This document shows, piece after piece, positions 2,208 to 57,559 of a DNA stretch of 64,000 bases. Numbering within the stretch: position 1 is the stretch's first letter; the number at the start of each line of letters is the position of its first letter. The stretch is from Dudresnaya verticillata (taxonomy: Eukaryota). The stretch is from assembly GCA_977862235.1 (NCBI GenBank), contig OZ374562.1:1612001-1676000 (forward strand), in the 5' to 3' direction. Both the position numbers and the translations under genes were made by a program. The notes under the pieces were generated by a model that was not told the DNA's origin, searched no databases, and saw nothing but the letters and a program-made list of their open reading frames with translations.

Positions 2208-2259
2208 CCCGCGCGACGCCCCGCCCCCGTCCCGCCGAACCGCCCCACCGCAACCCACC

Positions 2260-19600: not shown

Positions 19601-19632
19601 GGGACTTGCACAACATGAAGAAGATTGGGTAG
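16601..19632 (+). pseudogene. ParB/Srx-like domain + beta-class DNA amino-(N6A/N4C) methyltransferase + C-terminal beta domain; one in-frame stop and one frameshift
   Basis: 16601..18289 (SRSGVERLK..., FGVVDGMHQ resembling ParB DGxHR) is followed in frame by 18290 (FDLILTDPPY). After a frameshift near 18500 come EKSPEVL..FCPEGGSVLDMHSGTMTTGIAA..CTLIE. Motif IV precedes motif I, the beta arrangement. Confidence 0.75.
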
Positions 19633-34483: not shown

Positions 34484-35248
34484 TGTGGTGCAACGGCAAG
34501 GAGGCCACCAAAAGGAAGCAAATCGACGGGCCAACTGTACGATCGGCCCAACCAAACGAAGACACTTGGCTAATGAAGTCGTGCCGTCGGCGCACGGACG
34601 GCGGTGAGCGCGCGCAAGTATGAAACGTGGCCACCGACTGTACACGTGGCTCACACGTGGCCACCTACGACACCTAGGCGCACCACGTGGCCCGCTGTAC
34701 ACGCATGATCTGATTTTGCGGCCAGACGCAAATCGAAATTGGATTTGGCCGCACGGTGAATCAAAAGGAAGACAGTGGAAAAATCAAGGGAAAATCTAAC
34801 TCGCAGAGCCAACCATTAACGCACAAGTACTTGGTTTAGTCTCGCAAGGGCCTCACATTGGCCCGACGCCGGAACACAAGTAGATATTTATGGCCGACCT
34901 GAGTAACCTCGGCCACTAACTGTAGAATAGCTCTAGATTAGCTCAGATAGCCGATTTTGGGCCTACTTAGCTGGCCACACACTACGGCTAAGCCGAAAAA
35001 GGTACGAAGCCGTCCCGCCAGAGGTTGGGAGTAAAGTTAACAACTGAACCCCCGACTTGGCCATTCTCCGTCCTCATCACGGATTCTGGCCACGACTTCG
35101 TCTGCGCGCTCCCGCTCTACCACGCTTGCTACCGGCGTGCAGGTCCGTTCTACGTTCTGGCCAGTTTTGGTTGAATCCGACAGGTCTTTGTGGTCTTCTT
35201 GGGGTCTCGTTTGGCTGCCGTACGCGGTGGTCCACTAGAGATACTGCA
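34484..35248 (+). repeat. 5' LTR of element A
   Basis: Direct repeat of 47032..47796, about 15 substitutions by eye. Confidence 0.95.
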
Positions 35249-35249
35249 C

Positions 35250-35267
35250 TGGTCTCCCGACCTAGAA
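35250..35267 (+). promoter_or_regulatory. primer-binding site of element A
   Basis: TGGTCTCCCGACCTAGAA, 1 nt after the 5' LTR, complementary to a tRNA-like 3' end (...GGGAGACCA). Confidence 0.85.
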
Positions 35268-35616
35268 GATCAGTTGTGATTCCGGCCGTATTGCTCCGTT
35301 AGAAGACTCGAGTAGCTGGCCGTAGTCGACGACGGCCAGTTTCTTCCTCGCTACTGTGGCGGCCAAACCCCGCAAGTTGCAGATTGCGGGTTAGTAACTA
35401 CCCGGTTCCGCAATCTGATTGTCAGTTTACTTCAACCCGCTTCTGTGGCCACAGTCTAGGTCACAGGCCAGATACCCTTCGCTTGGTTCGTTCCCAGGTT
35501 GGCCACTTTGCACACTCGCTGGTTCGTTCCCAGCACAGGGAGCTTTGCACACGGCAGTGTCCGGCCCTTGGTATAGGGACTATTAGCTCGGAATCGTCCG
35601 TTCCCACCCCTGTGTT

Positions 35617-38063: not shown

Positions 38064-38169
38064 CCGGGCCGAGATCTTCGGTCGTGATCCCGTTGCCCTA
38101 CACGTCCCAAAACCGGCTAGTCTCGTTTCAGGTAAGTTATTTCCTTTTAGTCATTTCCATTTTTCTTCT

Positions 38170-41100
38170 TTGTTAGCCATTACATGGCGTCTGGCAACGC
38201 CAATCCAGGTTTGGTCAACCCATGATTTGACCTACCACTGCCCATTTTCATCTAACGGTCTGGTGTGGTCACCGCCCTGGAGGTCTGGCCATACTACGTC
38301 ATCATCCACCCCCACAAACAATGGGGGTTCTTTGCCAAAGAGTGGCCGCAAATCATCGAACGACGAACAGAAAGAAGAATCCCAACTGGCCAGTGTTTCA
38401 TCACAAGGTATGGTCTGCATCCTGGGTGGGGCCAACTATACCCTTTCGGGTTCATTTGGGCTCACAATTTTCGCCTTGTTACCAGGGCCAATTGTCTTAG
38501 ACACGTGCTCGGGTTGGAACATCATCCGGTTGGATGCGTTACCTCCCAACTGGAAGGACAACGCACTTGGGTTAACGTCCCCTCCCCTTCTGGGGGACGC
38601 CAACCAACGGCCGATTCATTTTCGAGGGGCTGTTTCCTTGGTCGTACGCTTAGGCCGTCACTCATATCGAGTGCCGTTCCTTATCGCCGACCTTCGCTTC
38701 GCCGTACCCGTTTTGTTGGGTACGGCATTTCTGAACACGCACGTGGATAGAATCCAGTGCCGTGCACAGACCGTGCAATTAGTGCGCGGTGACGTCCTTC
38801 CTTTGTTACCCGACAGCACTTCGATGGCTCTGGGGGCAGAGCCAACCGCTGCGAAGGGGGCCCCGCCTCCGGGTAATTCCAATTCGGCCAGTGTGGAACG
38901 CAAGACCCCGCGACACTACGCGGCCACTGCACGCTTGACGAAAGGTCTAACCATACGGGCAGGCCAACAGGCCACCGTGTCTGTTCGCAGCGATGGCCGA
39001 GGATTATGTGTGTTGGAGCCCAAACATTCTTTGAGCTTTCGACACCATACGCGGATGGCCAATGGAGTTGCCGAAGTTCGGCCGCAGAAACCATTCCAGG
39101 TAATGCTGGCCAACTGGGGAAGAAAGGATGTCTTACTGCCAAAGGGTACCGTGGTCGGCTATGCTGTCCGCCACCCCATGGCAATCCTGACGCCACATCG
39201 ACGGAGTGTGGAGAATATGGCCAGTGTACTTGGGCTTACTCCACTTGTGGATCAGGGTAGTAGTCAAGTAGAAGTAGAAGAATCTGGCCAAGAAACAGGG
39301 GAACCTGCGGAACCGAAGGTACCCAGACAAGAGGCACAAGAATGGCGGGATAAGATCAATCTTGACCATATTCCGGACAAGAAACAACGCGAAAAGATAA
39401 TGGCCATTCTAGAGAAACACAGTGCAATGTGGGACGGTTCTCTGGGACAGATCATGGCCACCGAACATCGGATAGACTTGGAAGATGGAACACGGCCAAT
39501 AAGAGCGATGCCCTATCGGCAGGGCCCTGCGTTACGCGCGATCGCAGAGGCCGATATTAGGAAGCAGTTGGAGGCCGGAGTGATAGAGCCATCGCACGGA
39601 GAATGGGCCTCGCCAATTGTGATGGTACCGAAAAAGGACGGCACCCTTCGTTTCGGCGTCGACTACCGCCGACTCAATGCGAAGACAGTTGGTGACGCAT
39701 ACCCGCTCCCGCGCATGGACGATTGTATAGACTCCCTGGGGGATGCGGCCGTGTTTTCAACCTTGGACTGCAACTCCGGATATTGGCAAATACCAGTGGC
39801 CGAGGAGGACAAGGATAAGACGGCCTTCACCTCTCACTTGGGGACATTCAGGTACAATCGAATGCCGTTTGGCTTGAAGAACGCACCAGCCACATTTCAG
39901 CGTGCGCTTGACATAGTTCTCTCTGGCGTCCGATGGCAGATCTGCCTCATCTATCTGGACGATGTCATCGTGTTCTCCAAAAGTGTGGAGGACCACCTTG
40001 GCCATCTAGACGAGGTCTTAACCTTGTTGAAGGCGGCCGGCATTACGTTGAAGTTGAAGAAGTGTTCCTTATTTCAGGCCAAAGTAGATTATTTGGGCCA
40101 TGTAGTGACTCCCGGAAAACTAAGTATGGCCATGCAGGGTACCAAGGCAATACAAGAAGCCGAGTTTCCAGGGTCCCTGACGGAACTTCGGTCTTTCTTG
40201 GGAGCTTGCAATGTCTACCGAAGGTTCGTGGCCAAATACTCCACTATCGCACGGCCACTTACGCGCATGTTGTGCAAGGATGCCGAGCCGGACTTCGAAC
40301 GGCCAACGGAGGAAGAACTTCATAGCTTCGAGAAACTGAAGGCCGCCCTCGTCTCGCCGCCGATTCTGGCCTTACCTAGATACGGCCGGCCATACGTGAT
40401 TGAGACCGATGCCAGCGCATATCAGATTGGATGCGTTCTGCTCCAAGAACAAGAGGACGAGTCGTACCATCCCGTAGGATATTGGTCTCGTTCCCTAACG
40501 TCGGCCGAGAAGAATTATTCGGCCACTGGGCGCGAATGTTTGTCTGTGGTGTGGGCCATTACATCACTACGGCCATATGTTGAAGGTACCAAGTTCACAG
40601 TCCGTACGGATCATGATGCCCTCCGTTGGTTGATGTCGCTCACTGATTCGTCTGGCCGTCTTACAAGATGGAGATTACGTCTGGCCGAGTTCGACTTTGT
40701 GATTGAGTATAACCCGGGCCGTAAGAACCAAGTACCCGATGCCTTGTCCCGCTTGGTGGCCCCGCAAGAGCGCGGAGACGCACGGCCAATAGATGATACT
40801 GTACCTGTATTGGACGGTACCCCCTCTATTCTCACGACCACGCGGGCCCGGAGAAATCGAGAAACTAATATGGCCGACAGGAGGGAAAGAGATGATGGAG
40901 TCGACGCATGGGAAGAGGAACATTTGATGGCCGACTATACGGTTAATGGCCGAGCGGAAGTCTTCAGTCGTGCACAAATGGAAGTGAAGACAGCAGAGAC
41001 TCTCCCAACACCAGTAACACAGACTGAAATAATAGAAGGCCAGAAAAACGATGACTTCTTCCAGACCATTCTCGCCACGCGAGCTGGCCTGGGACGACCC

Positions 41101-42491
41101 AAGAAACCTCTCTTCTTCGAAGGGGTCGATGGGGTCCTCTACAGACGTTGTCCAACAGATGGCCAGAAACAAATGGTGCTTCCAGCCTCGTTGCATGGCC
41201 GCATTCTTCGGTTGTGTCACCATACCGTTCTGGCAGGTCACCCTGGCCAGAATCGAATGTATCAGACTCTTCGACGGACATACTATTGGCCACACATGGC
41301 CGCTGATTGCCTAGCAACAGTTCGGAACTTTGGCCATTGCGCGAAGAACCGGATTCGTCGCCTCCGACATACATCGAAGTTACAGCTGTTCCCGGCCAGT
41401 CAACCATTAGAGAGTGTGGCCATGGATCTTCTCGGGCCGCTCCCCAGGACTAAGAAGGGGTTCGAGCACATATTAGTCATTACATGCCGCTTCTCGAAGC
41501 TGACTCAGGTGGTGCCGTTGACAAAGATAACCGCCTATAATGTGGCCACGGCGTTCTGCGTTCACTGGATTTTCAAGTACGGCGCACCAAAGACAGTTCT
41601 TACCGATAACGGAGGGCAGTTTGCGGCCAAGTTCTTCCAGGCAGTCTGCCGGCAATTACAGGTGGCCAACATCTTCACAACAACATATCATCCATAAACA
41701 AATGGCCAAGTGGAAAGGTACAATCGAACACTGGCCGCAATGCTGAGGAGCTACGTGAAAGAACACCAGACTGACTGGGATGAATACGCTGCGGCATTGA
41801 CGTATGCTTATAATTGCCATATACATCACTCGACTGGAACCACGCCGTTTGACTTGGTTCTCAGTCGGCCGCCGAGCTCATTCTCACTTGAGGCTACGTT
41901 AAACCGGCCAAAGCCAACAGGGACTGTGAAAGAAGCGTTCTTGCGCCGATTATCAGAGGCCGTGGATAAAGCTTCGGCTAGTTTAACTCGCACACAAGCG
42001 CGCTACAAGAAGGACTTTGACCGCTCGGTTAGGACGGGTAATAAGATGCTGGCCGCTGGGGGGTTTGTCTTCTTGGACAACCCAGAAAAACAGCCAAAGA
42101 AACTAGAGCATCATGCCCAGGGGCCGTACAAAATTTAAGCAACGATGGCCGTACGTTCGTCATCGACAGAGCTGGCCAACTAGAGCGTGTTAGCTCGGAC
42201 CGAGTAGTAGCCGCGCCCAGGCCACAGGGGCAACCGATGGCTACGGAGACAATGGCCAGCGCCGCATTGGGAACCCTTCCGGAAGGAGTCGCTGCGTCGG
42301 CCGAGGAATATGTCATTGATAAGCTCACGGATATGCGCGAGGATTCAACTGGCCAGCGATGGTTTCAGGTCAAGTGGTATGGGTATAATGGCCGAACGTG
42401 GGAACCCGAGGCTCTTCTGCCAGCCACGTTGGTATCCCGCTTCTTCGCGCGCATGAAGCGCCGAGCTACGCCGGGCCAAAACAGTTCGTAA
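38170..42491 (+). pseudogene. pol: pol of element A (PR-RT-RNaseH-IN-chromodomain)
   Basis: VLDTCSG protease, YLDD RT, IETDAS RNase H, DLLGP/TDNG integrase, stop in YHP*TNG (41697), frameshift near 42135, EYVIDK...VKWYGY...TWEP chromodomain. Confidence 0.92.
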
Positions 42492-43346
42492 GGTCAACAT
42501 CGACATGATCAGGGGAGTCGAGCGAGAGGAGTCAGAGTCTCGCCAAAAACTTGTGAAGACGGAGGTGAAGGGTGGTTGTGGACGGAGGAAGGAGATGCTG
42601 GGTGACAAAATACCCCGGCTGGAACCCCATCACCAAAAACACGACGGCGGTGTTTAGGGTTAACCCAGAATAATGTAAGCTGGCCAATCATGTGTGAGAA
42701 AGTCGTGGCCAGCAAATCTCCCGGTGTACGCCGAAATTCAGTGGATGTGAATGGACGGTAGAAACTACCTCATCTTTTGTTGCCTTTTCCAGGTAACTCT
42801 AATTCCCACGCGTCGTGCTCCCGAGCGGGGGTTTGCGCAGAGTGAGAGAACAAGGGAAACGATGATAGCCCCTACCGACAACGAGAGGGAAATTGGCCAG
42901 AGAAGAAGACATGGCCGGATAAGGTGCTTGAGGCTGATGAGACGAAGACAATAGCTGGCCATTGCTCGTCCCCCGGCGCCTTGAAGAGGGTAGCCCCACA
43001 CCAAGGCCACTCTACCCCACCACTTGAACTGGCCATTTTTTGTGCTTTGACTTAACCACTAACTCCCTTAACCCCGTTTTTCCAGCTGTGCTCATGAGCA
43101 TTGGCCAGAAGCAAGACTTACGACCCGAACTAACAAAGGCCTTACGGCCCCATTAACTAGTAACTGGGCACGGCAACACACAACATTTTTGAAGGTAACC
43201 AGTGCACTTTACCTCAAGACTGGCCAGACAGACTCATTAACCCCCAAAGACAAGGGGGCCCGTCCAACCTTAAGACGCACTAACTTGGCCACCAACTTTT
43301 GATAACGCAAACACAAGACACAGGAAATCACAAGACCAACAACAAC

Positions 43347-44960
43347 TCATTGGCAAGCATAAGAGCACAAGACGAGCTGGCCAACTACTAATCCAAGACC
43401 TTGACAACTAACGACCATAGGGACTTGCGAGCGAGGAGAACCCGAAGCATAGGGCTCTCTGCGCCTTGCCTGTGAAGGCGCCTGAGGCGCTGTCGCAGGC
43501 GCACGTGGGGCCGTCGCGGGAACAGTTGGCGGCGTCACGAAGGGCGAAGTGATCGGTAGAGCTAAACTGCCAGGAACATGGCCAGGTTGAGCAACATTGG
43601 CCACAGGAGTAGGTGGAGCCGACACCACCGGACGCGTTGGCTCTGGCTGATAGTCAGCCGGTCGAGACGGCGCGCGCGGATGGCCAGAGACGTCACCAGC
43701 GTAAGACGGCGTGGGGGTTGTGGCCGGTGCCACTGAGACCCCAGGATATTGCGGCATAGTTGGAGCCGGCGCAGGCGTTGGCAGGGAGGACAAAGGAAAC
43801 TGAGGCACCTGGCCAAAGACAGACGGTGCACAAGCTGCACGCAAACTGGCCATCTGATGAAATCCACGGTTACGCTCCAAGTCAAGTAAGGCCTGTTGGT
43901 TATGAGTTTCGTCACACCAACGGTCGCGCTGCCTCTTCCATTCGAGACCTTGCTCATTGGACCTGGCCAGTGACTCCTTCGCAGCTCGCAACTCAGCCTC
44001 AATCTGATCCTTCTGACTCCTAACATTGGCCAGCCGCTCTTCGCCCCGTCCGATAACTCCTTCCACTTCATCAACATGATGACGAAGGCGGTTAAGTTCA
44101 TCGGTCTGGCCACGCTTCGTGTCGCTGAGACGGCTAAGGCTTTGGTTCAGCTGCCGTAAGACGTTGGCTAAAGACATTTGCCTAACATTGCAGCGTACAG
44201 AGAGTTCGGCCACCACATGCGGATGAGGATGCAAGATAGCGGGCCGCACGATGGAAGCGTCATTGGCCACATCAACTCCAAAGCTACTACCATGCCGAAA
44301 AGTCACTTGCTTATTCCAGTCGAAACCGCAATACTTCTCATCATGACCCGCTCGACGTTGGAACAAATGGTCGCGGTGTAGCACTGTGTCGGCCAGCTTC
44401 TCGTACAACGATACAACATCTGGCCAATACACATGGTTGAATTGATGCTGGTGCTCCTGGCTGACGGGAAGATAAGTAAGGCCTTTCACCACTTCAATCC
44501 GTCGAGTAATGGCCTGAGGAGACATCCACCACATCCTCTTCGACGCTTGCGCTTCGAAGCGGAAGAAGATACTGGCCATTATGTGCAACTCCATGACAGC
44601 GGTTTCTTGGAAGCACTCAACCCAAGTGGGTTCGTGCGCATGACGACGATACTGGCCAACAAAATAATAAGCCAGAGGGCTAAGTAGACAAGCTGCTCCC
44701 TTCGATGGCCACTCCTTCCAAAGAAAAGCGGGAACGCTAGGGAAGTATTCGACCGAGGGCCAAAACCCTTCCTGGCCACGAGTATTACCATGGTAGACAT
44801 AGCTACCACCCGTGCGATGGGCCAACCAATCTCCCGGCGCTATGATGCGACGAAGGTCGGTAATGGCCATTTTCGCGTTTCGCACGGTCGTCTGCTCCCA
44901 GCGCTCAAGCATCCACGAGTGAGGGAAGGCGTAATACCAGGTGGAAGTATGAGGGTACAC
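43347..44960 (-). CDS. antisense accessory ORF 2 of element A (Trp/aromatic-rich domain, coiled coil, Pro-rich tail)
   Basis: 537-codon open frame between pol and the 3' LTR; probably continues ORF 44962..46800 across a frameshift. Confidence 0.55.
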   Translation of the reverse strand: MYPHTSTWYYAFPHSWMLERWEQTTVRNAKMAITDLRRIIAPGDWLAHRTGGSYVYHGNTRGQEGFWPSVEYFPSVPAFLWKEWPSKGAACLLSPLAYYFVGQYRRHAHEPTWVECFQETAVMELHIMASIFFRFEAQASKRMWWMSPQAITRRIEVVKGLTYLPVSQEHQHQFNHVYWPDVVSLYEKLADTVLHRDHLFQRRAGHDEKYCGFDWNKQVTFRHGSSFGVDVANDASIVRPAILHPHPHVVAELSVRCNVRQMSLANVLRQLNQSLSRLSDTKRGQTDELNRLRHHVDEVEGVIGRGEERLANVRSQKDQIEAELRAAKESLARSNEQGLEWKRQRDRWCDETHNQQALLDLERNRGFHQMASLRAACAPSVFGQVPQFPLSSLPTPAPAPTMPQYPGVSVAPATTPTPSYAGDVSGHPRAPSRPADYQPEPTRPVVSAPPTPVANVAQPGHVPGSLALPITSPFVTPPTVPATAPRAPATAPQAPSQARRREPYASGSPRSQVPMVVSCQGLGLVVGQLVLCSYACQ

Positions 44961-44961
44961 A

Positions 44962-46800
44962 CTAGACTTGCCCTTGAATCAACCAAGCCCCGTGGACGAA
45001 CATCACGTCCTGCGCGCACAACAAGAAGGCACGGTCGCACTCAATCTCCAGAGGGATCCAATAGAGATGGCCATTGTCGTGCGACTCGCGATATTGATGC
45101 CACGCCTCCTTGAGAGGGCAACGGCTTTCCCGCACGCGAATCATGTCCAGCTTGTCACTATTGGCCACCAACTCGGTATAAGGAATATCCACTCGAGGAA
45201 GCTTTGGCCAGATGGAAGTCCCGGGCAGTCGTTCGTCCAAAACTAACTCAGGGCCATCCTGATCTTCTAGTCCCGATGGGAGGTCGGAACGGAAAGGTAC
45301 AGCAGCACGAGTGTGCGAAGCTGGTTCAAAATCCGGATGCGTCGGAACAGAGGGGCCAGCGCTTGAACTTGGGATATCCTGGCCAGCCTTGGTGATATCT
45401 AAGGTCTCTTCGCGCGGAGTAACTTCCTTTGCGCGGGGATCTTCAATCTGGCAAGATGACTTGGGCTGCACGCCTACAGAAGGTGTAGACGAAGAATGGC
45501 CAGTTTTAAGCTCATCGGCGTCAGGGAGCAAAGCCACAAACCGACGCCGATCGCCGTCAGACATGAGGTTGGCCGGTGGAATCGGTGTGGAAGCATCGAC
45601 GTCAATAACTTCGTCGCGGGATATCTGGCCAACTTCCTTAGGAGGCAACCGCTGCTTCTTCGCAGGAGGACCCTGAAAAGCGGGCTTGCCGGTGTTTAAC
45701 TTGGCCAGCTCACGCGCACGGCTCGCAACCGTCGGCATGAAAGGAGAAGGCGCCGAGCGCAGTCGTGGTGTAGATTTATTCGAAGCACTGGGTGTCACCC
45801 AACGCGATGACTTGCGTGGCACGGGAATATTGGCCAAAGCTTCTGGGACCTTCTGCTCTGGCTTATCTCCTTCCTTCTGCTCTGGCCCAACCTTCTCAAC
45901 TCTTCCAGGTAACTCTTCTTTACTGGCCAGCGGTTCTTCTCGAGCGGGCACAAACACCATGGCCGAATCAGAAGCCTCGGGTTGAGCCGAAGCTACTTCT
46001 TCGGCTGCCGCAGTAGTGGCTCGGGTAACCAGTGGACGAGAGATGGCAATAACAGCCCTCTCAACAGCGCTGGCCAACGGCGGTGGCGTCGGATTAATGG
46101 CCGTTGGCACCGAAGTGCTTGCGGCCATCGACTTCTTCGCCTCGAGACGCTTCACTTCGGCCTGTACCAACCCTTTCTCAGGCGCTTCTGCTACCTTCTG
46201 GCCAGTTTTCCTCGTCTCCTTGGCTAGCGGGCCGACGATAGAAGACGCTATCGGCTTACCCCTTTCAAGTTGGCCTGTTGCCGCCGCTGCCTCCTCCGAC
46301 GAGGATGACGCGACGATGGTCACACTGCGCACCACCTTGTCCTTCTGCGCATCAGCAAGTTTCTTCTTCAGACTGGCCAGTTGTTGCTCCTCAGCTTCGC
46401 GCCTCTTCTGACTGGCCGCTATCTCCTGCATTAACTTGTCGGTGCCAACGTCGGGCGTACCTTGCACCATGGCCGGAGTCGCGGAAGCAACAACACTCTT
46501 CTTCTGGCCAGTTGTGACGGGCTTCTCCACCGCGGTCACCTTCGCAGCGACCAGCGGATCGTTAGATGCACGACTTGGGGTCTTAGGGGCCGGGGCGGAA
46601 GATGCCCTGGGCGCCTTCATCGCACGCGGTCTCGAACTCTGGCCAGTCTTCTTGGTGGTCGCCTTCACTTTGGCCGCAACAACTTCTTCATCGCTCGACG
46701 GCGGCGTAGAGGATGAGCTGGAAGAAACGGTCGGCCGTACAGTCTTCTTCTTGGCGGATGCGGTGCGGCGCGGACGCGCTTTCGCAGGGCCACCCGCCAT
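44962..46800 (-). CDS. antisense accessory ORF 1 of element A (Lys/Ala/Ser/Pro-rich, largely low complexity)
   Basis: Part of the 650-codon ORF 44962..46914; first in-frame ATG at 46800 (MAGGPAKARPRR); NLS-like PPAKKQRL. Confidence 0.55.
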   Translation of the reverse strand: MAGGPAKARPRRTASAKKKTVRPTVSSSSSSTPPSSDEEVVAAKVKATTKKTGQSSRPRAMKAPRASSAPAPKTPSRASNDPLVAAKVTAVEKPVTTGQKKSVVASATPAMVQGTPDVGTDKLMQEIAASQKRREAEEQQLASLKKKLADAQKDKVVRSVTIVASSSSEEAAAATGQLERGKPIASSIVGPLAKETRKTGQKVAEAPEKGLVQAEVKRLEAKKSMAASTSVPTAINPTPPPLASAVERAVIAISRPLVTRATTAAAEEVASAQPEASDSAMVFVPAREEPLASKEELPGRVEKVGPEQKEGDKPEQKVPEALANIPVPRKSSRWVTPSASNKSTPRLRSAPSPFMPTVASRARELAKLNTGKPAFQGPPAKKQRLPPKEVGQISRDEVIDVDASTPIPPANLMSDGDRRRFVALLPDADELKTGHSSSTPSVGVQPKSSCQIEDPRAKEVTPREETLDITKAGQDIPSSSAGPSVPTHPDFEPASHTRAAVPFRSDLPSGLEDQDGPELVLDERLPGTSIWPKLPRVDIPYTELVANSDKLDMIRVRESRCPLKEAWHQYRESHDNGHLYWIPLEIECDRAFLLCAQDVMFVHGAWLIQGQV

Positions 46801-47031
46801 CAAGAGCGAACTGGCCAGACACGCACGTCGGAAGCAAGGGAAAGCACGCGCAGGTTGGCAAGAAGGGAGATGTCTGCGCGATGTTTTAGCAAGTGTTGGT
46901 AAGAGGAAGCACAATGCGACTGCGATGGTGATGGCCGGTTGCCGGGAGAGGGGAAGCGGCGCGGATCATGCGCGCTGATATGGCCAGATGAAACCCTCGC
47001 GGCCAGGAGTCCGCGCTTGCAAAGGGGGCTC

Positions 47032-47796
47032 TGTGGTGCAACGGCAAGGGGGCCACCAAAAGGAAGCAACTCGACGGGCCAACTGTACGATCGGCCCAAC
47101 CAGACGAAGACACTTGGCCAATGAAGTCGTGCCGTCGGCGCACGGACGGCGGTGAGCGCGCGCAAGTATGAAACGTGGCCACCGACTGTACACGTGGCTC
47201 ACACGTGGCCACCTACGACACCTAGGCGCACCACGTGGCCCGCTGTACACGCATGATCTGATTTTGCGGCCAGACACAAATCGAAATTGGATTTGGCCGC
47301 ACGGTGAATCAAAAGGAAGACAGTTGAAAAATCAAGGGAAAATCTAACTCGCAGAGCCAACCATTAACGCACAAGTACTTGGTTTAGTCTCGCAAGGGCC
47401 TCACATTGGCCCGACGCCGGAACACAAGCAGATATTTATGGCCGACCTGAGTAACCTCGGCCACTAACTGTAGAATAGCTCTAGATTAGCTCAGATGGCC
47501 GATTTTGGGCCTACTTAGCTGGCCACACACTACGGCTAAGCCGAAAAAGGTACGAAGCCGTCCCGCCAGAGGTTGGGAGTAAAGTTAGCAACTGAAACCC
47601 CGACTTGGCCATTCTTCGTCCTCATCATGGATTCTGGCCACGACTTCGTCTGCGCGCTCCCGCTCTACCACGCTTGCTACCGGCGTGCAGGTCCGTTCTA
47701 CGTTCTGGCCAGTTTTGGTTGAATCCGACAGGCCTTTGTGGTCTTCTTGGGGTCTCGTTTGGCTGCCGTATGCGGTGGTCCACTAGAGATACTACA
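47032..47796 (+). repeat. 3' LTR of element A
   Basis: Direct repeat of 34484..35248, preceded by a polypurine tract. Confidence 0.95.
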
Positions 47797-48001: not shown

Positions 48002-48656
48002 TGTGGTGTAGTGAAAACCCACGAACTCCGAGACGGACAGCTGGCCTGACTTTCCTTAACGGACGAGAGCAACACTACCTCCACGGGGTGGTAGAGCAGT
48101 TCGCACCGAGACGGGAGAACAGCGAGCGGCTAACCGAGACGGATATTGGGAAGCAACAGACAAGGGGGTGGTACAAGTGCCGGGACGGGCTCCGTAACGG
48201 TGGTGGTGGTAGACCGCAACGGGCTCGGCGCAGGGAAAACCGTAAAGGATTGGGCTAAGGTTGCTTACCCGTTTACCTTAGGAGCCGCTGCGGTGCCGCC
48301 CTGATATACAAGTCAGGGTGGCACCGAGCGGTCCGGTCCGTGGGGGCCAGACCCTAGTGGTCTGGTCCTATGGTGGAATCGGCCCTGCTGGTCCCAATCT
48401 CCGACACGGACATGCGCAGCATTCTCATTGGCTGGCGCGCTACTCTAGACACTGTACAGATACTCACTAAAAATAAAGAATAAGTACTACAAATACTCCG
48501 CTTCGGTTGGTGCGCTCCACTGCTGACAACAATGTACGCCAGCACACAACAATGCACCCAAAACCGACACGGATACACGTGCACAAATCCCACAACGGTT
48601 CAGGCCACACTATATGCATTTCCACCGTTTCGGATGCCGAATCTCACTTCACCACA
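48002..48656 (-). repeat. 3' LTR of element B
   Basis: Direct repeat of 56905..57559, about 6 substitutions by eye. Confidence 0.95.
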
Positions 48657-49968
48657 GACCCCCCTCCTTAAATGGCGCCACGCCCTCGTGCGCCCACCTT
48701 CAAGGGGTTGCGGTTTGGGTCCGACGCACCATCAACGGATTCGAGAAGCTTTTCCAGGTCTCTCATCAACTTCTCAACTGCCGTCACGGTTTGCTTCGAT
48801 GCATTGGGAAACGCCACGCACCCCCGATACTAGGACTTCCGTCACGGAGAATAAGCAAAACGCGCTGGACGCGAGTGTCGCGCTCCATCCGCAAGGGTTT
48901 CCTGCCCAGGCTGGTCGCCAGTCTTCTGCCTCATAAAACATCCGCAACGGGTTCCTCCAGCGTGTCAGCGGAGCAGACGCCAGATCTTACCCCTCTTTCA
49001 CCGTAACGGGAGTGCAATCCAGACACCTCACAGATAGCCGTATTTGCAAAAATCCGACATGGGGGTCCTACCACACATAAAGGAGCAAACACTCTTGGAG
49101 AGTGTTGCTCTCACCGTAGCGGAATAAGTTTCCCCAACGTGTGGTACACAACGGTCTGCTCGAACGCGCAGTCGATTACGCTCCCATATCCACAATGGAC
49201 AATTCGTACTCCGATCGGATGACGGTACTTCACACCCGCTACCTCCTGACGGAAGTTGTTCCGACTTGGGTGGCGAGAAGTTGGGGGGCTAGATACGCCA
49301 CAAACCGTCGCAGGCGGCGTGTTTCAGGAATCCGTAGCGGTTACAGGCGAATACCTTCACTCCTGCTCTTATGAGACACACCACGAACCTCTTCCTCTTG
49401 AGATGAACCCAACCCGCGACGGTGTTAATATATTATTTTGAATATAATAATATATTGAAAATGTTAATATTAACACCAATATTAATATATTCCCCGGGAC
49501 TCTGAGAAGAATAATGAGACCGAGGAATTTTCCTGTACCGTCGCGGAAGGGGCCGTTCTTGGCCCAAACGTGCTGGGGCGGCCGCCCATCGCAAGAAAAA
49601 GGCGTGCCCCTCCCGGAAAGGTCGACGACGAACACCGTTACGGTGGCTGACGGGGTGTTCAGAGCGATTTCCGTGACGGAAGAGTGCCGCGTAAGCGGTG
49701 GAACCTGGGCAAAGTACGCCGGCTGCGATATTGCGGAAAAACGAGAGTACCGTTTCGGGAAATGGGTCGCGTCATCAGCAGGGTACGCGACCCACGCTGG
49801 CAAAATCCGTGACGGAGCGGTATGCCCCAGTTTGAGCAGCAACGATCGTTGGATGTCGACATCCCGTAACGGTAGCAGGCGTCGACAAGATGCAGTTCCC
49901 GAACCGGGTCGCCACATCGCGGGGAGTTGCGATTACCGCAAGCGACAGTAGCTTGTTTTCCGTTACGG

Positions 49969-52900
49969 TTAGCGGCGTGCCTTGGCTGGGCGTCGCAGTG
50001 GCTTTCCCTTAGCGGAGCTCTTGCGTTTTTGCTTCCAATAGCGGTAGATGAAGTTCTGCGGCAATTCCTCGGCGGGTTCGTAGGTATCCTGATCCGGAGG
50101 GTAACCATACCAGCGGACTTTGTACGTCATCCCAGTAGGTTCGTCGCGGTGACCGACAATCTTGTCGATCACATATTCCGTATCGGCTTGTAGTGGTTCC
50201 GTCGCGGAGGGAGTAGTACCTTCAGAAGGAGGTACTACTATAGTACCTTCTGGATGTGGCACTACTTCTCCGTAGACGGTTGATGGCGTGACAGGCGGCA
50301 CTGTTAAGGGTGCCGGCTGAACCGCAACTCCGATCGGAACCTTCGTGATGCGATCGATACTTACGGGGATCAATACCCCTTCCTTTCGGATTGTAACAAC
50401 ATGTTCCGTTGCGGATTCCACTTCGTAAGGCCCCGTGGCTCTCGGAAGGAGTTTCTTCATTTCCTGAGCCACCTCGCCTACATCATCCGGCTTGCCTTCC
50501 AATCGGTCCCGTTCACGGCGTTCGGCAGGCCGCAAGTTATGGGGCGGCCTGTCGACGTAGACTTGATCTCCGTTACGGATTATGGGCCTAAAGCGCACCT
50601 TACGGTCAAACAGTGCCTTGGCTTTTTGCTGAGCCACTGTTTGCTTCGTGCGCGCTGTTTGGAGCGCATACCGTAAACGGCGCATGGTACTCCGCTTATG
50701 TAGCACCGGGGTCATAAGCCCTTCCGTAACGGTTTCTTGATGCTCGACAGGAGCCCCTCGTACTACAATGTCCGATGGGTGGCGTGTCAGCACCAAATCA
50801 AATGGCGTTGTTTCCGTAATACGGTGTACCTGCATGTTGTACGCATATGTCAACGGTTGCAGGTACAAATCCCAATCGGAGTGATGATCCTCAACGTAAT
50901 GGCGCAAACGCTGAGCGATTGTCTTATTAAATCGCTCAGCTTGCCCATTTGTCTGCGGATGGTAGGCAGCGGTAAGTAGATGCCTGACTCCGAGTAAGGA
51001 ACACACTGCGTCAAAGAACTTAGCAGTAAACTGCGGTCCATTATCGGTTAGGACAAATTGGGGTGCGCCGTAGGCGTACACCCAAAAGTCCAGAAAGGCG
51101 TTAGCCACCACAACGGCTGTTGTTGTCCGTAACGGAATACAGCGCGTCAGCTTAGAGAACCGATCGGTTATTACCAAAACGTAGACATAACCCCGTTTTG
51201 TCTTCGGAAGCGGCCCGAGAATGTCGATAGCGACGAACTCCAAAGGTCCGCTAGCGGGGAAAAGCTTCATAAATCTTTGATTCCGAAAGCGGGTTCCCTT
51301 TGTCTTCGCGCAGGAGCGACATGTCCGAACGGATTCAAGTACATCGTTGGCCATATGAGGCCAATAATAATCCTGTCGGAGTGTATAATACATCTTAATC
51401 CCGCCTGGGTGACCCGACATCAGGGTGTAGTGGGATAAATACAATACCCGTCCACGGAGTTCGCTTGGCACCACCTTTTGTAGAGCGCCATCCAATTGGG
51501 ACTTGCGTACCAAGAATCCGTTACGGTCATAGTCAAACTGTGATCCAGAGGAGCCTACCGTATCGGCTTTGAGACGACAGAAAGGGTCTCTGGCTTGCGC
51601 TTCGAGGAACTCCTCCCTGGTAATTGTCTCATCCTTAACGTCGGATTCTTGTATTACAGTAAACCGTGACGGTATTGCGTCGGGCTTGTCAGGGGAGGCG
51701 GATGCACTCCCACTGGCGGGCTCCACGGCGCATATTACGTTATTTTCCGTAGCGGTTTCTTGTGATGTGGCCCAATCGGTTAAATAGACTCCATGCTCGT
51801 ATAATCCGTCGACGGTATTTTCGGCGACAAAGCAGGGTATCTCTTCATCCAAAGGTCTATTGTCACCGCCATCCGTTCGGAGTCGCGACATCCCATCGGC
51901 GAGTTGGTGCTTAATTCCAGGACGGTATTGCACCTCGAATTCAAATTCCGATAGGCGGAGCCTCCACCTGGCTAGGCAGCCAGATGAGTCTGCGAGGTTC
52001 AGGATCCACCGCAGGGCATCGTGATCCGTTCGGAGAATAAACTTGTCACCGTAAAGGTAGGGTCGTAGTGTTAACATGCTCCAGACCACGGCTAAGCATT
52101 CCTTTTCGGTTGTCGTATAATTTTTCTCCGCATCGGTGAGGCTTCGGCTCCAGTATCCAATAGGGAGGTGATCGCCATTCGGTTGTTCCTGCAGAAGGAC
52201 ACAGCCGACTTGGTGGTCACATGCGTCAGTGTCCAACGTATATTTATATCCGTGACGGGGTAGAGCCAATATAGGTGGAGAGATAAGGCGTCTCTTCAGT
52301 TCCTCGAAGGCTTCATATTCCGTATCGGATAATATTCCAAACTCAAAGGGTGAGCCCTTGCCGGTTTTCTTATTTAGCGGAGCTGAAATCCGAGCGAAGT
52401 TGGGTACAAAGCGACGATACACGTTGCACATTCCCAAGAAGGATCGCAATTCCGTTTGGTTAGTCGGCGGCTTCGCGACCTTGACGGATTGGATATTTCG
52501 ATTATCCACTTCTAATTTTCCGGGACGGATAACATGCCCCAGGTATTGTACAGACGCGTTAAAGAAGTCACACTTTGACAATTTCAACGTTACCCCAGCG
52601 GATCGTAAAAGCGTAAGGACTTCCTTCAGGTGGTGGAAATGTTCCGTAACGGTTTTTGAGTAGACAATTACATCGTCTAGGTAGACGAGGGCAAATTGCC
52701 ATTTAACCGTAGAAAGGATTATATCCATTGCCCGTTGGAAGGTTGCCGGTGCATTTTTCAATCCGAATGGAATTCTCCGAAAACGGTTTAAGCCAAAATG
52801 GCTAGTGAAGGTAGTTTTGTCCCTTTCCTCTTCCGGAATCTCGACTTGCCAATATCCGCTATTGCAATCCAGGGTGGTAAATACAGTAGCTTCCCCAAGG

Positions 52901-54237
52901 GAATCTATGCATTCATCCATCCTGGGCAAGGGATATGAGTCCCTAACCGTTACGGAATTTAGCCTTCTATAGTCAACACAGAACCGCATGGTGCCGTCCT
53001 TTTTTGGAACGAAAACCACGGGGCTGGTCCACTCCGATGAGGCTGGTTCAATTACCTTAGCGGAAAGCATGCGATCGATCTCTGTCTTTTCGAGATCTCG
53101 CTGCTTATGTCCGGCACGGTATGGGGCTTGGTATACTGGCTTAGCTCCGGGAGTTAACTCGATGCGGTGCTTGGCAGCTGTAATGTTGCCAAGATCGCCA
53201 CTCCACATCGACTTATATTCCTCGAGTAGGGTTAAAATCCGTTTGCGGAGCGATGCTTCTTCTGTGCCGATCTGGACTTGATCCTTCCAGTCGGTAGTAT
53301 TTGTATTTTCCGTTACGGGTTTGCTTACTTCCTTGTCGTGAGGGGAGATGCTGCTGGCCTTTTCGGAGGTAGGGTTAGAATTAAATGAGTGAATAATTCC
53401 TCCCCCTCCTTAAATGGAGGTATACCGTCAACGGTAAAAAATAGCAGAGGGGGCAGCAGTAGCGAGGCCCACGACAGTAGATTTGGGCAACCGTACCGGC
53501 TTGTTAGAAAAAGTAGAGACCCAGATCCGAAACGGTTTGTTAGGTACAACATCCATAATACCATTAGCCATTAACGTAAGGTGCTTAAAAGCCGGCTTAG
53601 GATGATTTTGTAGAAAGCATAACCCACCCGTGGGGGTATTAACCGTTACGGTGGTTTGAGTCATAGGGGGAATAAGGGTAGATTTTGCTAAACGAAGTTT
53701 CTGAGAAACCGTAGCGGTAGAGAGAGGTGAGGGCTGTAGGGTTGCAGTGGTTCCCGTCTTCGGAATTTTGGCTTGACCAACAAGGGATACCGGTGGGTAA
53801 TGATGAAAAACAACTTTCCGTAACGGAGGGAGTATTGCCTTCACGTAGCGGTCGATGAAGGTAGTTCCCAAAATACAGGGAGCCGCCAAGTTCGCGACCA
53901 CTAGAAAATGGACGCGAGCACGGAGCTCTCCGATACGGACGAAAAGTTGGATCTGACAAAGAGGGCGTATAGCGCGATTAGACGCATCCCGTAATGGAGG
54001 ACTGGCTGCTGGGCGTATGAGTGGGAGCCATTGGCGCGGAAGGCGCCTGGCACTAATGAGATTGGGCCCAGCGCCAGAGTCCAAGACGGAGATTAAAGGA
54101 AGCATCACGCTATCTGTCCGTCCCACGGTAATTTGCATCTTGTAATTTTGATGTTGCATAAAGCAGATAGTATCATTGGTCTGATAAGCCAATGGGAGTT
54201 CCGTAACGGTATCTCGCCGATCCCCTGGCGGGTCCAC
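49969..54237 (-). pseudogene. pol: pol of element B (protease ORF 53428..54237, frameshift, then RT-RH-IN-chromo ORF 49969..53208)
   Basis: VLDSGAG, YLDD, LDTDAC, HYTLMSGH..CRSC, DILGP/TDNG/QAER, EYVIDKI..KVRWYGY..DTYEP; a frameshift near 53430 separates PR from RT. Confidence 0.92.
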
Positions 54238-54381
54238 ACTCGCGAGAGGTGGAACGCCGTGAGGCGGGGATGGCGGCGCCCTTACGCATCCCCCCTTGAG
54301 TTTTCCGAATTCAAGGTTGCACCAGTCGGATCCGCCTCCATGGGCTCGCGCAATTCTGCGAGTTCCACTCCGTCATGGTCC

Positions 54382-56649
54382 TCACACCGATAGTATCGGG
54401 GCATTCCGTTGCGGAGGGGGCGTTTGCGGTCTGCCCCGATTCCCTTGCGGATTCGAACTGGTTCCTACTACGAACCTGCGACCTACAGGGTAGTGCTTCT
54501 GGAAGTTGCGCTCGCGCTCTTCCATAAGCCTAACCCGATCGGAGTCATGTATCCATGGGCAAACAACGTGCTCTGGAGAAAGGCAGATGCGACAGTTACC
54601 ACTTCCGTAAAGGCGTCGGACCCGAGGATCCGACTCATCCCGTAGCGGAGGTGCTGGTTGCTGCTGTCCTCGCCCATCGTGGGCATTATTTCCGTAACAG
54701 TGACTCGGCTGCTGTTGGGGGCCAGGAGGCAGGCGAGATCCATCATAGGGGGGACCTTGCGCGCGTGGCATCCTGGGCGGAGTAGGGTGGACGCTTTGCG
54801 GGGGCGAGGAGTACGGGGTAGAAAAGGTAACCCCCGTGCTCGTTCCCGTAGCGGCACCGTGGCCTCCCTCGACGGCTAGCACTTGATTATCCGTAGCGGA
54901 AAGATTCCCTTGCGGCTCATAGTGTACATCCGATACGGAATCCAGCGACAACACCTTAGACGGGCGCGCTTTAGTGAGCCCATCAAAGGCGTGAGCCGGA
55001 ACGGTTTGGCGTCGAGCTGCCCGATGGGACTGACCCAGGCCAGTCGCATAGCGAGTGATGGCCTGATAATCCAACTGGGAATGTGTCGCTAGATAATTTC
55101 TCATCTGTTGACGAGTACCCGGTAGGAGTCCTTCAATGAACAGTGACTTCAATGCCCGATCGGAAAATACTGTACCGCAATGGAGAGCCTTGGCCCAGAG
55201 CTGGTTCGAGTACTGCTCTTCCGTCATGGCGGATGTTTGCCTGAAGTTGCTGACATCCGTATAGGCAATCACTTCATCCGTAGCGTAGGTTCTCAACAAA
55301 GAGTTCACCACCTCGGAATATGTGCGGAGCATCTCGGCCTGCTCCACGTCAACCGCCATGGTACCTCCAGCAAGCCTAGCCTGTAGAAGGGCTTCGGCCT
55401 GTCCTTTAAGTAAAAACTGGAAGCACCAGACGGCAACCCCTTCGGCGATGCCGTTGATGTTACAACCGTCACGGAACTTAGCGAGAAATCCCAAGACGGT
55501 AATAGGGTCCGTCCCATCGAATGTATGGGACGACATCTGGACGTCGAGTTTCTTCCGTATACGGCTCATGTTCTGTGAGAACTTATAGCCGTAGGTCTTA
55601 CTCCTCTTATCCAATCGGTAGGTGCGGTAGTCCAGCGCCTTGACAAACTTGTCATGTAGCGGCCGGATTACCTTTACCTTTCCGGATTTGGCACCGTGTT
55701 TTCTGGCCCGGTGCCTATTCTCTCTATCCGTTACGGAAGAACTCTCTGAGTCTGAATCCGTAGAAGTAGAGGAGTTATGCCCTTTTTCGCGTTTCCGCGA
55801 TCTTCTGTTTCTCCTCTTGCGGCGACGGTGTTGGCTATCCTCTGAGCTGCTCTCATTGGATTCCGTACCGGATTGGTGGCGTCGTCGCTGGGTGTGGTCG
55901 CCCATGTGCGACCGACGGGGAGGGTCAGAGCGGGAGTGTCGGGCATCTCGTTTATGCCGACCTCGACCGGTCCTCCGACTCGGATGGGGTGAGCTGGACG
56001 CATCGCTGAGATGGTCGCTGCCTCCACCTGGTTGAACCGGAACGGTATAGCGCTCTTGCTGATAGCGCCCTGGCGTAGGCACATCTACGTGTCCAGGCGA
56101 ATACCGTAACGGTGGCTGAGTGTGTGTTGGTCCCGTAGGGGCTTGTTGATCTTGAGAATCCGTTACGGGAGCCGGTGGCAGTGGCCCAGAGGGTACTGTG
56201 CCCGGCGGCAATCCCATAACGGGGGGTTGTTGCGGCTGCTGCGTTCTTCCCTCGACCGGGAAGTCATTCCGTAACGGTGGTTGCTCAGTGAAAACTTCCG
56301 TAGCGGGAGGCCTTGCCATGCCGGGAGCAATCTGGCTCTCGAGCTCGGCGGCCACCTTTTCCTGTAGGATCAAAGCTTGCACTATCCGAGGAAGGTGCTG
56401 CTCCAGATAGGAATTAACCAAAGACGGAACAGTTTCCGAGAGGGATATCTCCACCTCTTTTACCATTCCAGGTTGTACTTCCAATCGGAGATGCTCTAAC
56501 ACCCTAGGAAGGACCTCCGACAGGACCCAGTGGACCCGATGGGATTCCGGCATGGGTTGCGGAGTGGCCTTCTTGGAGGCGTCTGATCCGACACGGGAAC
56601 GGGGAGCTTTACCAGCAGCACCCTTTAGGATTTCTTCTGGGTTCTCCAC
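54382..56649 (-). CDS. gag: gag of element B
   Basis: 755-codon ORF with LDYRTYRL, TFDGTDPITVLGFL and CRICLSPEHVVC knuckle; start uncertain. Confidence 0.8.
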   Translation of the reverse strand: MENPEEILKGAAGKAPRSRVGSDASKKATPQPMPESHRVHWVLSEVLPRVLEHLRLEVQPGMVKEVEISLSETVPSLVNSYLEQHLPRIVQALILQEKVAAELESQIAPGMARPPATEVFTEQPPLRNDFPVEGRTQQPQQPPVMGLPPGTVPSGPLPPAPVTDSQDQQAPTGPTHTQPPLRYSPGHVDVPTPGRYQQERYTVPVQPGGGSDHLSDASSSPHPSRRTGRGRHKRDARHSRSDPPRRSHMGDHTQRRRHQSGTESNESSSEDSQHRRRKRRNRRSRKREKGHNSSTSTDSDSESSSVTDRENRHRARKHGAKSGKVKVIRPLHDKFVKALDYRTYRLDKRSKTYGYKFSQNMSRIRKKLDVQMSSHTFDGTDPITVLGFLAKFRDGCNINGIAEGVAVWCFQFLLKGQAEALLQARLAGGTMAVDVEQAEMLRTYSEVVNSLLRTYATDEVIAYTDVSNFRQTSAMTEEQYSNQLWAKALHCGTVFSDRALKSLFIEGLLPGTRQQMRNYLATHSQLDYQAITRYATGLGQSHRAARRQTVPAHAFDGLTKARPSKVLSLDSVSDVHYEPQGNLSATDNQVLAVEGGHGAATGTSTGVTFSTPYSSPPQSVHPTPPRMPRAQGPPYDGSRLPPGPQQQPSHCYGNNAHDGRGQQQPAPPLRDESDPRVRRLYGSGNCRICLSPEHVVCPWIHDSDRVRLMEERERNFQKHYPVGRRFVVGTSSNPQGNRGRPQTPPPQRNAPILSV

Positions 56650-56881
56650 TCCGGAACGGATTTCACCTCCTTCACTGCGCAGACTGCGCGCAGGGGGGTA
56701 GTGTCATCCGCTTTAGGTTCCGTAACGGGAGGGTCTGCGTGTTCTTCGTTCTGCATGATACCTTAACGGAACACAACGGTTGTTCTTGCTTGTCTATCCA
56801 ATATTCCGTAACGGGTTGTCGGTACAGCCGAATTCCTACCGTAGCGGATTTCGACGGCTGTTTCTTCCAACCGTGACGGTG

Positions 56882-56899
56882 TTCTAGGTCGGGAGACCA
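56882..56899 (-). promoter_or_regulatory. primer-binding site of element B
   Basis: TGGTCTCCCGACCTAGAA on the minus strand, 5 nt from the 5' LTR; identical to the element A PBS. Confidence 0.85.
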
Positions 56900-56904
56900 A
56901 AAGA

Positions 56905-57559
56905 TGTGGTGTAGTGAAAACCCACGAACTCCGAGACGGACAGCTGGCCTGACTTTCCTTAACGGACGAGAGCAACACTACCTCCACGGGGTGGTAGAGC
57001 AGTTCGCACCGAGACGGGAGAACAGCGAGCGGCTAACCGAGACGGATATTGGGAAGCAAAAGACAAGGGGGTGGTACAAGTGCCGGGACGGGCTCCGTAA
57101 CGGTGGTGGTGGTAGACCGCAACGGGCTTGGCGCAGGGAAAACCGTAAAGGATTGGGCTAAGGTTGCTTACCCGTTTACCTTAGGAGCCGCTGCGGTGCC
57201 GCCCTGATATACAAGTCAGGGTGGCACCGAGCGGTCCGGTCCGTGGGGGCCAGACCCTAGTGGTCTGGTCCTATGGTGGAATCGGCCCTGCTGGTCCCAA
57301 TCTCCGACACGGACTTGCGCAGCATTCTCATTGGCTGGCGCGCTACTCTACACATTGTACAGATACTCACTAAAAATAAAGAATAAGTACTACAAATACT
57401 CCGCTTCGGTTGGTGCGCTCCACTGCTGACAACAATGTACGCCAGCACACAACAATGCACCCAAAACCGACACGGATACACGTGCACAAATCCCACAACA
57501 GTTCAGGCCACACTATATGCATTTCCACCGTTTCGGATGCCGAATCTCACTTCACCACA
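56905..57559 (-). repeat. 5' LTR of element B
   Basis: Direct repeat of 48002..48656. Confidence 0.95.

Follow-up and report, generated by a model that had tools for sequence, protein, structure and literature searches.

A dispersed palindrome overlies the genes of a Ty3/Gypsy retrotransposon, and a different palindrome those of its neighbour

We analysed a 64,000-nucleotide stretch of Dudresnaya verticillata DNA (hereafter the window), in which two Gypsy elements, A and B, are separated by a gap of 205 bp. Element B has the LTRs, the target-site duplication (the same 5-mer, 5 bp, flanking both ends), the primer-binding site and the polypurine tract of a Ty3/Gypsy element, and its Pfam domains follow the order RT, RNase H, integrase and C-terminal chromodomain (Chromo, E 1.4e-10). 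Dispersed over B is a dyad, for which we distinguish the strict motif, CCGTNACGG, the core, CCG-N3-CGG, and the wider consensus in B, W-CCG-TNA-CGG-W. The features are as follows; 'reader' denotes the protein that would bind such a motif.

34484..47796, + strand: element A, the second Gypsy element, with 765-bp LTRs and a 5-bp duplication, Pol identity to B 48%
43347..46965, − strand: a pair of antisense ORFs in A that overlap each other (667 and 543 aa), family unplaced, candidate reader
48002..57559, − strand: element B, a full-length chromodomain-bearing Ty3/Gypsy LTR retrotransposon (LTR pair, target-site duplication, Pfam domains)
48002..57559, no strand: dispersed dyad W-CCG-TNA-CGG-W, 30 strict and 83 core copies (72 counting one LTR)
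56905..57559, − strand: 5′ LTR of B, 655 bp, 11 core sites (16.8 per kb)
56882..56899, − strand: primer-binding site of B, 18 nt, shared without mismatch with element A (35250-35267)
56704..56904, − strand: leader of B, from LTR to gag, 4 core sites (19.9 per kb)
54382..56703, − strand: gag ORF of B, 773 aa stop to stop, 17 core and 5 strict sites
53428..54372, − strand: protease ORF of B, 314 aa, DSG motif, 7 core and 3 strict sites
49969..53409, − strand: RT-RNase H-integrase-chromodomain ORF of B, 1146 aa, 18 core and 9 strict sites
48657..49968, − strand: 3′ region of B, 15 core and 8 strict sites (11.4 per kb)
48660..48675, − strand: polypurine tract of B, its 16 nt recurring unchanged at 53402-53417
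48002..48656, − strand: 3′ LTR of B, 655 bp, identified by comparison of the LTR pair

The two LTRs of B differ at 6 positions over 655 bp. Between its protease and RT ORFs lies a short stretch interrupted by two stops, where most close relatives have a single continuous ORF, and its 3′ region contains short ORFs only (150-187 aa). B shares LTRs, a 5-bp duplication and the gag-protease-RT-RNase H-integrase-chromodomain order with red-algal chromodomain Ty3/Gypsy elements (chromoviruses). In our tree it is sister to a clade containing a Chondrus crispus protein (support 0.988); the Pol identity of its closest relatives is only about 60-67%, and its gag has four homologues (identity 33-61%). No relatives were found in viral and prokaryote sequence collections.

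The first-pass annotation had reported about 30 copies of the strict motif in B, including copies inside gag and pol. All 30 of the 30 positions were confirmed, with no copy elsewhere in the window, as was the presence of strict sites in gag, protease and the RT-RNase H-integrase-chromodomain ORF (5, 3 and 9, respectively). Dinucleotide shuffles of the window gave a mean of 1.27 copies and a maximum of 6. The spacing is strict: within 48002-57559, CCG-N3-CGG occurs 83 times, versus 2-12 times at spacers of 1-2 and 4-12, and the remaining 54.5 kb of the window has 16. Counting one LTR, the 72 core sites compare with 5.7 under an order-2 Markov null (maximum 15 of 200). The outer dinucleotides behave likewise, CC-Nk-GG in B peaking at N5 (160 versus 32-94 at other spacers). 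Other palindromes occur in B at the background density of the window (4.83 versus 4.52 per kb for 4-N-4; 16.1 versus 16.9 for 3-N3-3), and the host ORFs of the window are without the strict motif.

Core sites occur on average once per 125 bp of B and are densest in the LTR and leader. They are dispersed and not tandem, as had been proposed; Tandem Repeats Finder gave a single array in B, of 2 copies of 27 nt. Their spacing is slightly more even than random (p=0.024), and no helical or nucleosome phasing stood out. Since the flanks of B do not match the motif, we rejected the idea that the motif was the integration target at this site.

The same annotation had interpreted the palindrome as an element-specific cis code overlaid on coding sequence, and this interpretation is supported, the motif being confined to B in the window, present in all frames and robust to codon-preserving shuffling. 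With the protein and codon usage fixed (2000 shuffles each), core sites numbered 18 versus 2.82 in the gag frame (maximum 9), 7 versus 0.77 in protease (maximum 4) and 18 versus 2.11 in pol (maximum 9); the corresponding strict counts were 6 versus 0.28, 3 versus 0.23 and 9 versus 0.47. The shuffled gag segment took in 17 codons ahead of the ORF, hence one extra site. Core sites occupy all three reading-frame phases (10/23/10). Coding positions compatible with the motif are nearly saturated: 17 of 21 are filled by the strict motif (0.94 expected) and 42 of 63 by the core (5.5 expected). The overlay reaches the protein as well. A blind scan of protein sequence alone ranked B's motif at the top of 256 palindromes, and 9 of the 14 motif-compatible peptides that B has in protease-Pol were near-private (mean 1.15 and maximum 4 in 125 relatives). 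The motif has altered the amino-acid content of B.

The motif had gone unnoticed in element A. Its absence there holds (0 strict and 3 core copies), but A is no blank control, as it carries an equally strong palindrome of its own. TGGCCA occurs in A 80 times counting one LTR, where about 8-16 copies are expected, and YGGCCR in all four forms occurs 154 times versus 50 expected. TGGCCA also passes the synonymous-codon test and fills 62 of 90 compatible coding positions in A (14.4 expected), whereas the cross-tests between the elements and the motifs were at background (0/4 and 1/24). The two motifs are nearly mutually exclusive; family A bears a different dyad in place of B's.

We surveyed 80 related loci, which form 12 clusters with 64 loci in one of them. 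The strict B motif is present in 0-3 copies per locus, and 78 of the 80 have no strong dyad among the results listed. In a screen of 256 dinucleotide pairs at 11 spacers over 87 coding sets, the top three scores belonged to B, A and the metagenomic relative L001, all of them palindromic. L001 has 67 CG-N3-CG versus 29.2 (maximum 37 of 150). Ordinary codon-pair bias takes GC-rich loci to z 5-8, so at a z of 8.6-8.9 on a single 3-kb contig the third dyad, that of L001, is probable but not certain. Another metagenomic element, L064, has a weaker variant (CCG-N3-CGG, 26 versus 7.2; maximum 16 of 200), the excess of which is not significant in homologous coding segments (3 versus 1.6). Several other candidates were rejected. 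The dyads of L006, L053, L071, L073, L012 and L020 were local clusters or low-complexity runs without pol enrichment. The CC-N4/N5-GG and GG-N1-CC signals of L008, L039, L048 and L080 were dropped because they fall among GC-rich loci that reach z 5-8, mostly with non-palindromic pairs. Protein sequences hinted that B's motif recurs in P0005, P0008, P0125 and P0129, but this was discounted, as each has at most 3 near-private sites; in P0005, P0125 and P0129 about half of the sites are peptides common with B.

Single mismatches in B total 1 at the four outer positions and 38 at the two positions flanking the centre, a pattern of fixed half-sites and a tolerant centre. The centre reads TTA 12, TAA 9, TCA 5 and TGA 3 times, so that its middle base occurs in both orientations. 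In sum, the B motif is specific in sequence and strict in spacing, with a two-fold symmetry that extends to its centre; it is distributed over the whole length of the element and comes close to saturating the coding sequence.

Of the three functions offered by the first-pass annotation, a protein-binding site fits these properties best, and the other two fared poorly. A role in RNA, where the palindromes would be kissing or packaging sites at which same-family genomes pair or Gag binds, is improbable. RNA viruses and retroviruses do have dispersed packaging signals in coding RNA, as well as kissing-loop palindromes that pair genomes; self-complementary words could pair two RNA copies, family-specific words would make packaging self-selective, and the flanks of L064 sites covary (9/9 versus 2.5), unlike those of B. 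The viral signals, however, need stem-loops and strand polarity, and in B and A we found neither covariation that would mark a stable stem nor such polarity. Flank covariation was absent from both B (28/72 versus 25.3) and A (28/80 versus 23.2). Nor was there a G:U preference of the kind left by RNA wobble pairing: in B the variant compatible with G:U on the sense strand is outnumbered by the one with a C:A mismatch (3 versus 13), and in A it is not favoured (31 versus 27). A compensated inner pair occurs once only, local hairpins at B sites are weak (mean probability 0.12; above 0.5 at 4 of 72), an Rfam search gave no match, and other self-complementary words are not enriched. A neutral origin is very improbable, whether reverse transcriptase made the words by template switching or copy-paste, or they came from quasi-palindrome repair or from mutation or protection linked to methylation. 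It could accommodate the unexplained strand asymmetry in B (C-N-A 13 versus T-N-G 3, p=0.02) and the extended stems of L064, which resemble palindrome repair; CGGCCG with CpG deamination on both strands would give the TGGCCA of A. CpG is not depleted, however (observed/expected 1.08 in B and 0.94 in A), which leaves an origin by methylation-linked decay unsupported, and the enrichment of every YGGCCR form in A goes beyond decay alone. Flank sharing between sites is at chance (6 site pairs with at least 6 nt versus 4.8), there is no tandem origin, and a general repair process would enrich every palindrome, including those found at background. With the hairpin, wobble, tandem/copy-paste and CpG-decay tests all negative, what remains is a site in duplex DNA, of fixed spacing, for a protein that binds as a dimer.

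Who would supply such a protein, and when it would act, can be read in other ways. One rather unlikely reading is that a host factor has been captured per family, for B a zinc-cluster-like dimer on everted CCG-N3-CGG, so that the element would serve as a distributed enhancer. Zinc-cluster (Zn2Cys6) dimers bind everted CGG half-sites at a fixed spacing, and B likewise has a strict single spacer, but the spacers cited for these proteins are 4 and 0 (Leu3 CCG-N4-CGG, Pdr3 CCGCGG; PMC10954478) and that of B is 3. B carries 72 copies over 9 kb, compared with a few per promoter; no zinc-cluster domain was found among 25 window ORFs scanned, B's included; and A's TGGCCA is not a CGG dyad. The host-factor reading requires no element-encoded reader, and none was found; yet the window's host ORFs are without the strict motif, and the dyads of B, L001 and L064 are related but different, which a co-evolving reader fits better than a fixed host set. 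It is also unlikely, though conceivable, that the reader acts on reverse-transcribed cDNA, with Gag, integrase or a partner coating own-family duplex to compact it, bring it into the nucleus or keep it from self-integration, and with sites accumulating by drive as uptake sequences do. This would account for whole-length coverage, duplex symmetry and family specificity with B-encoded proteins alone. Bacterial uptake sequences are non-palindromic. As described in PMC2817400, those of Pasteurellaceae and Neisseriaceae are dispersed, lineage-specific 9-10 bp coding words that raise the frequency of the encoded peptides, and B matches them in its use of all reading frames and its shifted peptides. 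They are genome-wide and read by an uptake machinery, whereas the present motif is much denser and belongs to single retrotransposon families of a eukaryote, being confined to B in the window. Against cDNA coating, Gag and Pol of B have no recognised sequence-specific DNA-binding domain, we know of no sequence-specific cDNA coating in retroelements, and sites are denser in the LTR and leader than in pol, a difference for which coding constraint could account.

Our preferred reading, to which we give a probability of roughly 0.4, is that the B palindrome is the duplex-DNA site of a B-family-specific dimeric protein that would keep family copies open and transcribed. Sites would arise singly, by point substitution, and would be retained as copies with more sites out-replicate their siblings. 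That the reader is a homodimer on double-stranded DNA is fairly probable; the least secure step is that the element family supplies this reader and that, like VANC, it works against silencing. The comparison with VANDAL/VANC, an anti-silencing system of Mutator-like elements in Arabidopsis, was raised earlier and stands as a functional analogy only. The likeness lies in a dense motif of about 9 bp, in one family and differing in sister families, where density confers specificity (PMC5735166); B's motif is similarly dense in one family and rare in A and the 80 relatives (window and fetched loci). According to the same source, VANC motifs are mainly non-coding, lie in one orientation and spread by tandem repeats, and the DNA transposon encodes the reader. 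Here the sites are palindromic, dispersed and within gag/pol of an LTR retrotransposon, with no trace of tandem or copy-paste spread and no reader found.

The search for a reader covered the window ORFs and the element proteins and found none for B's motif. B has no large accessory ORF and no VANC-like ORF; its short ORFs had no tblastn match in the 80 loci, and Pfam, searched with four of them and with the two antisense ORFs of A, gave no match, a VANC or PMD-like reader included. The downstream antisense ORF of A had no homologues and its predicted fold was unusable (pLDDT 35); the upstream one was searched against Pfam and the 80 loci. The N-terminus of B Gag had no Atlas match and no informative solved relative, and the predicted fold of the conserved Gag region was likewise unusable (pLDDT 39).

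These observations bear on how retrotransposons distinguish members of their own family from copies of other families, and on how they escape silencing. The sequence-specific anti-silencing system met in the literature consulted belongs to a DNA transposon and relies on non-coding arrays (VANC; PMC5735166), and among the search results listed there was no coding-wide palindrome overlay in an LTR retrotransposon, red-algal chromoviruses included. Different, near-saturating palindromes in the synonymous sites and amino-acid choices of A and B imply strong selection on cis sequence inside gag/pol. As the motif can be removed silently, its function is directly testable. More broadly, and doubtfully as yet, a red-algal Gypsy clade may use a self-recognition code, in which each family would have its own palindrome along its whole length, in coding sequence too, and a fast-diverging dimeric DNA-binding module that it encodes, so that neighbouring families would be addressed separately. 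If element-encoded, the readers would constitute a new family of programmable dimeric DNA-binding proteins. It is likely that the palindromic word of each family is bound by a protein that would let the family recognise its own copies.

The palindrome CCGTNACGG occurs 30 times in the 64-kb window, and all of the copies lie within element B, a Gypsy retrotransposon (shuffled window: mean 1.27, maximum 6). The first-pass annotation had placed about 30 dispersed copies there, and 30 of 30 positions proved exact. The features referred to below are as follows.

48002-57559 (-): element B, a complete Gypsy element coding for gag, protease and RT-RNase H-integrase-chromodomain in this order, with LTRs of 655 bp each (6 differences between the pair) and a 5-bp target-site duplication
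34484-47796 (+): element A, the neighbouring Gypsy element
43347-46965 (-): two long antisense ORFs in the 3′ region of A (667 and 543 aa)
8902-10476 (-), 16583-19632 (+) and 29587-30516 (+): a DUF7869 ORF, two unannotated long ORFs and a degenerate reverse transcriptase
58976-61637 (-): host gene whose copper type II monooxygenase domains precede a Hint module
1933-6855 (+): two polysaccharide pyruvyl-transferase-like ORFs, one fused in frame with a triose-phosphate transporter domain

These 30 strict copies mark the summit of a broader motif with the consensus W-CCG-TNA-CGG-W. Its core, CCG-N3-CGG, occurs 83 times in B, as against 2–12 times for spacers of 1–2 and 4–12, and 16 times in the remaining 54.5 kb of the window. 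With one LTR counted, B has 72 core sites, where an order-2 Markov null predicts 5.7. Symmetrising the profile gives W-CCG-T-W-A-CGG-W, and CC-Nk-GG words reach their maximum at N5 (160 copies). Within 48002-56904, CG-N3-CG words lacking both the outer C and G are scarce (8 versus 23.4 expected), and CCGT-N2-ACGG occurs seven times. The B motif is genuine, strong and out of the ordinary, and it is broader than first described.

We compared the coding regions with 2000 synonymous shuffles each, in which the protein and the codon usage were held fixed. Core sites numbered 18 in the gag frame (2.82 expected), 7 in the protease (0.77) and 18 in pol (2.11), exceeding all 2000 shuffles in every case, and they occupied all three reading phases. 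The proposal that the motif overlies gag and pol coding sequence therefore survives codon-preserving shuffling. At coding positions where the amino acids permit it, the strict motif was present in 17 of 21 (0.94 expected) and the core in 42 of 63 (5.5 expected). Such compatible positions are themselves in excess, the B motif ranking first of 256 palindromes in a protein-only scan; in protease-Pol, 9 of the 14 compatible peptides fall in columns where they are used by at most 3 of 127 proteins, whereas the relatives have on average 1.15 such peptides. These results, from shuffles and saturation to excess compatible positions and rare peptides, show that the motif has moulded which codons and residues the lineage of B uses.

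By membership, B ranks among the ordinary chromodomain Gypsy elements. Of the named relatives, a protein from Chondrus crispus comes closest (60%); a FastTree tree of 44 sequences puts it in the sister clade of B with support 0.988, so the host is probably a red alga. A short stretch with two stops breaks the protease-RT junction, which is continuous in most close relatives; this may be a mutation or an assembly error. The polypurine tract (48660-48675) has an exact 16-nt duplicate at 53402-53417, between protease and RT. As KEG or KEGG is encoded at this place in several relatives, the duplicate may be a conserved internal primer for the plus strand.

The Pol proteins of A and B are 48% identical; even so, both LTRs start with TGTGGTG, and the elements share an identical 18-nt primer-binding site (35250-35267 in A, 56882-56899 in B). 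As the first reading had it, the B motif is not a feature of A (no strict and three core sites). A carries 80 copies of TGGCCA, versus 8.4 or 15.8 expected depending on the null, and 154 of YGGCCR; B has a single TGGCCA. Under synonymous shuffling, TGGCCA was in excess in A pol (18 versus 6.1, maximum 13), the first gag ORF (5 versus 0.48) and both antisense ORFs (15 versus 2.7; 16 versus 2.6), while four short ORFs had 1–3 copies each, none significant singly. It occupies 62 of 90 compatible coding positions (14.4 expected). Neither antisense ORF matched Pfam; the downstream one, whose N-terminal half is rich in aromatic residues and precedes a predicted coiled coil, had no homologue in homology searches. 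The rest of the window held no enriched palindrome (best p about 1e-4, 960 patterns per segment), and the DUF7869, unannotated and reverse transcriptase ORFs showed no palindrome excess.

Among 538 confirmed metagenomic loci, we kept 80 related to B (39–57% identical; 12 clusters, one of 64 loci). Each had 0–3 strict B motifs. The top-ranked locus (L001:1-2968), an independent Gypsy pol with CpG o/e 1.51, has 74 CG-N3-CG words (W-CG-N-W-N-CG-W); in the synonymous-shuffling test 67 were observed versus 29.2 expected (no more than 37 in any of 150 shuffles), and other spacers showed no excess. A full-length element (L064:1-10184) has 26 CCG-N3-CGG words versus 7.2, mostly around CCGA-N-TCGG, an excess not significant in homologous coding segments; the flanks of its nine CCGA-N-TCGG sites covary, differing yet self-complementary for 1–4 further bases (9/9 at the first flank). 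In a screen of 87 coding sets for all 256 dinucleotide pairs, each at 11 spacers, the three highest scores belonged to B, A and L001, each palindromic; the top pair was palindromic in only 6 of 87 sets, the chance rate. Four weaker dyad signals were discarded because GC-rich loci reach z 5–8, mostly through non-palindromic pairs. A family-specific dyad is thus firm in A and B, probable in L001 and possible in L064; none was seen in the other 78 of the 80 loci. Some GC-rich relatives cluster a longer, imperfect palindromic word downstream of pol (L071:4000-6100 and L073:4000-6000, about 20 copies; L006:7000-8100; L053:9000-11000), an arrangement closer to that of VANC, the anti-silencing protein of VANDAL transposons.

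Other palindromes in B stand at background, so general self-complementarity is not involved. Kissing loops and dispersed packaging signals are the RNA systems for comparison, and a packaging or dimerisation signal had been suggested. Such a signal is improbable. The sites are no hairpins, as flanks do not covary in B (28/72 versus 25.3) or in A (28/80 versus 23.2) and local arm pairing is weak (mean probability 0.12); nor do they behave like pairing between RNAs, the wobble-compatible variant being the rarer on the B sense strand (3 versus 13). A neutral process is more improbable still, given that we detected no block copying, tandem origin or CpG depletion; the last, absent in B and A, leaves an origin by methylation-linked decay without support. 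In B sites the outer positions are nearly invariant, those beside the centre tolerant and the spacing strict, a pattern expected of a homodimer on duplex DNA. The motif would accordingly bear the signature of such a protein.

We favour, with a probability of roughly 0.4, a family-specific dimeric reader that would bind along the integrated element and keep it active, the sites building up through point mutations as copies compete with one another. This reading is weakened above all by the failure to find a reader: B encodes nothing sizeable besides Gag and Pol, the downstream antisense ORF of A has no detectable relative, and the predicted folds were unusable (pLDDT 35 for the downstream antisense ORF of A, 39 for the conserved region of B Gag). 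That a reader acts instead on the cDNA is rather unlikely, and a captured host factor somewhat more so.

Zinc-cluster dimers recognise CCG-Nx-CGG in everted arrangement (PMC10954478). The motif bound by VANC21 is 9 bases long and abundant in the family it belongs to, but lies chiefly in tandem arrays that are non-coding and share one orientation (PMC5735166). B resembles a VANC-type code by analogy, yet falls outside it, its motif being dispersed, palindromic and within coding sequence. By analogy, it would work like bacterial uptake sequences, which overlay coding sequence and double matching tripeptides (PMC2817400). The accessible portions of PMC13547354, PMC12859917 and PMC9861306 hold nothing on such a motif, nor those of the first two the word palindrome. 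Searches of a mostly open-access literature turned up no description of a palindrome code running across coding sequence in LTR retrotransposons or red-algal elements, a silence that is not proof of novelty. It is conceivable, if doubtful, that the motif belongs to a new element-encoded system of self-recognition.
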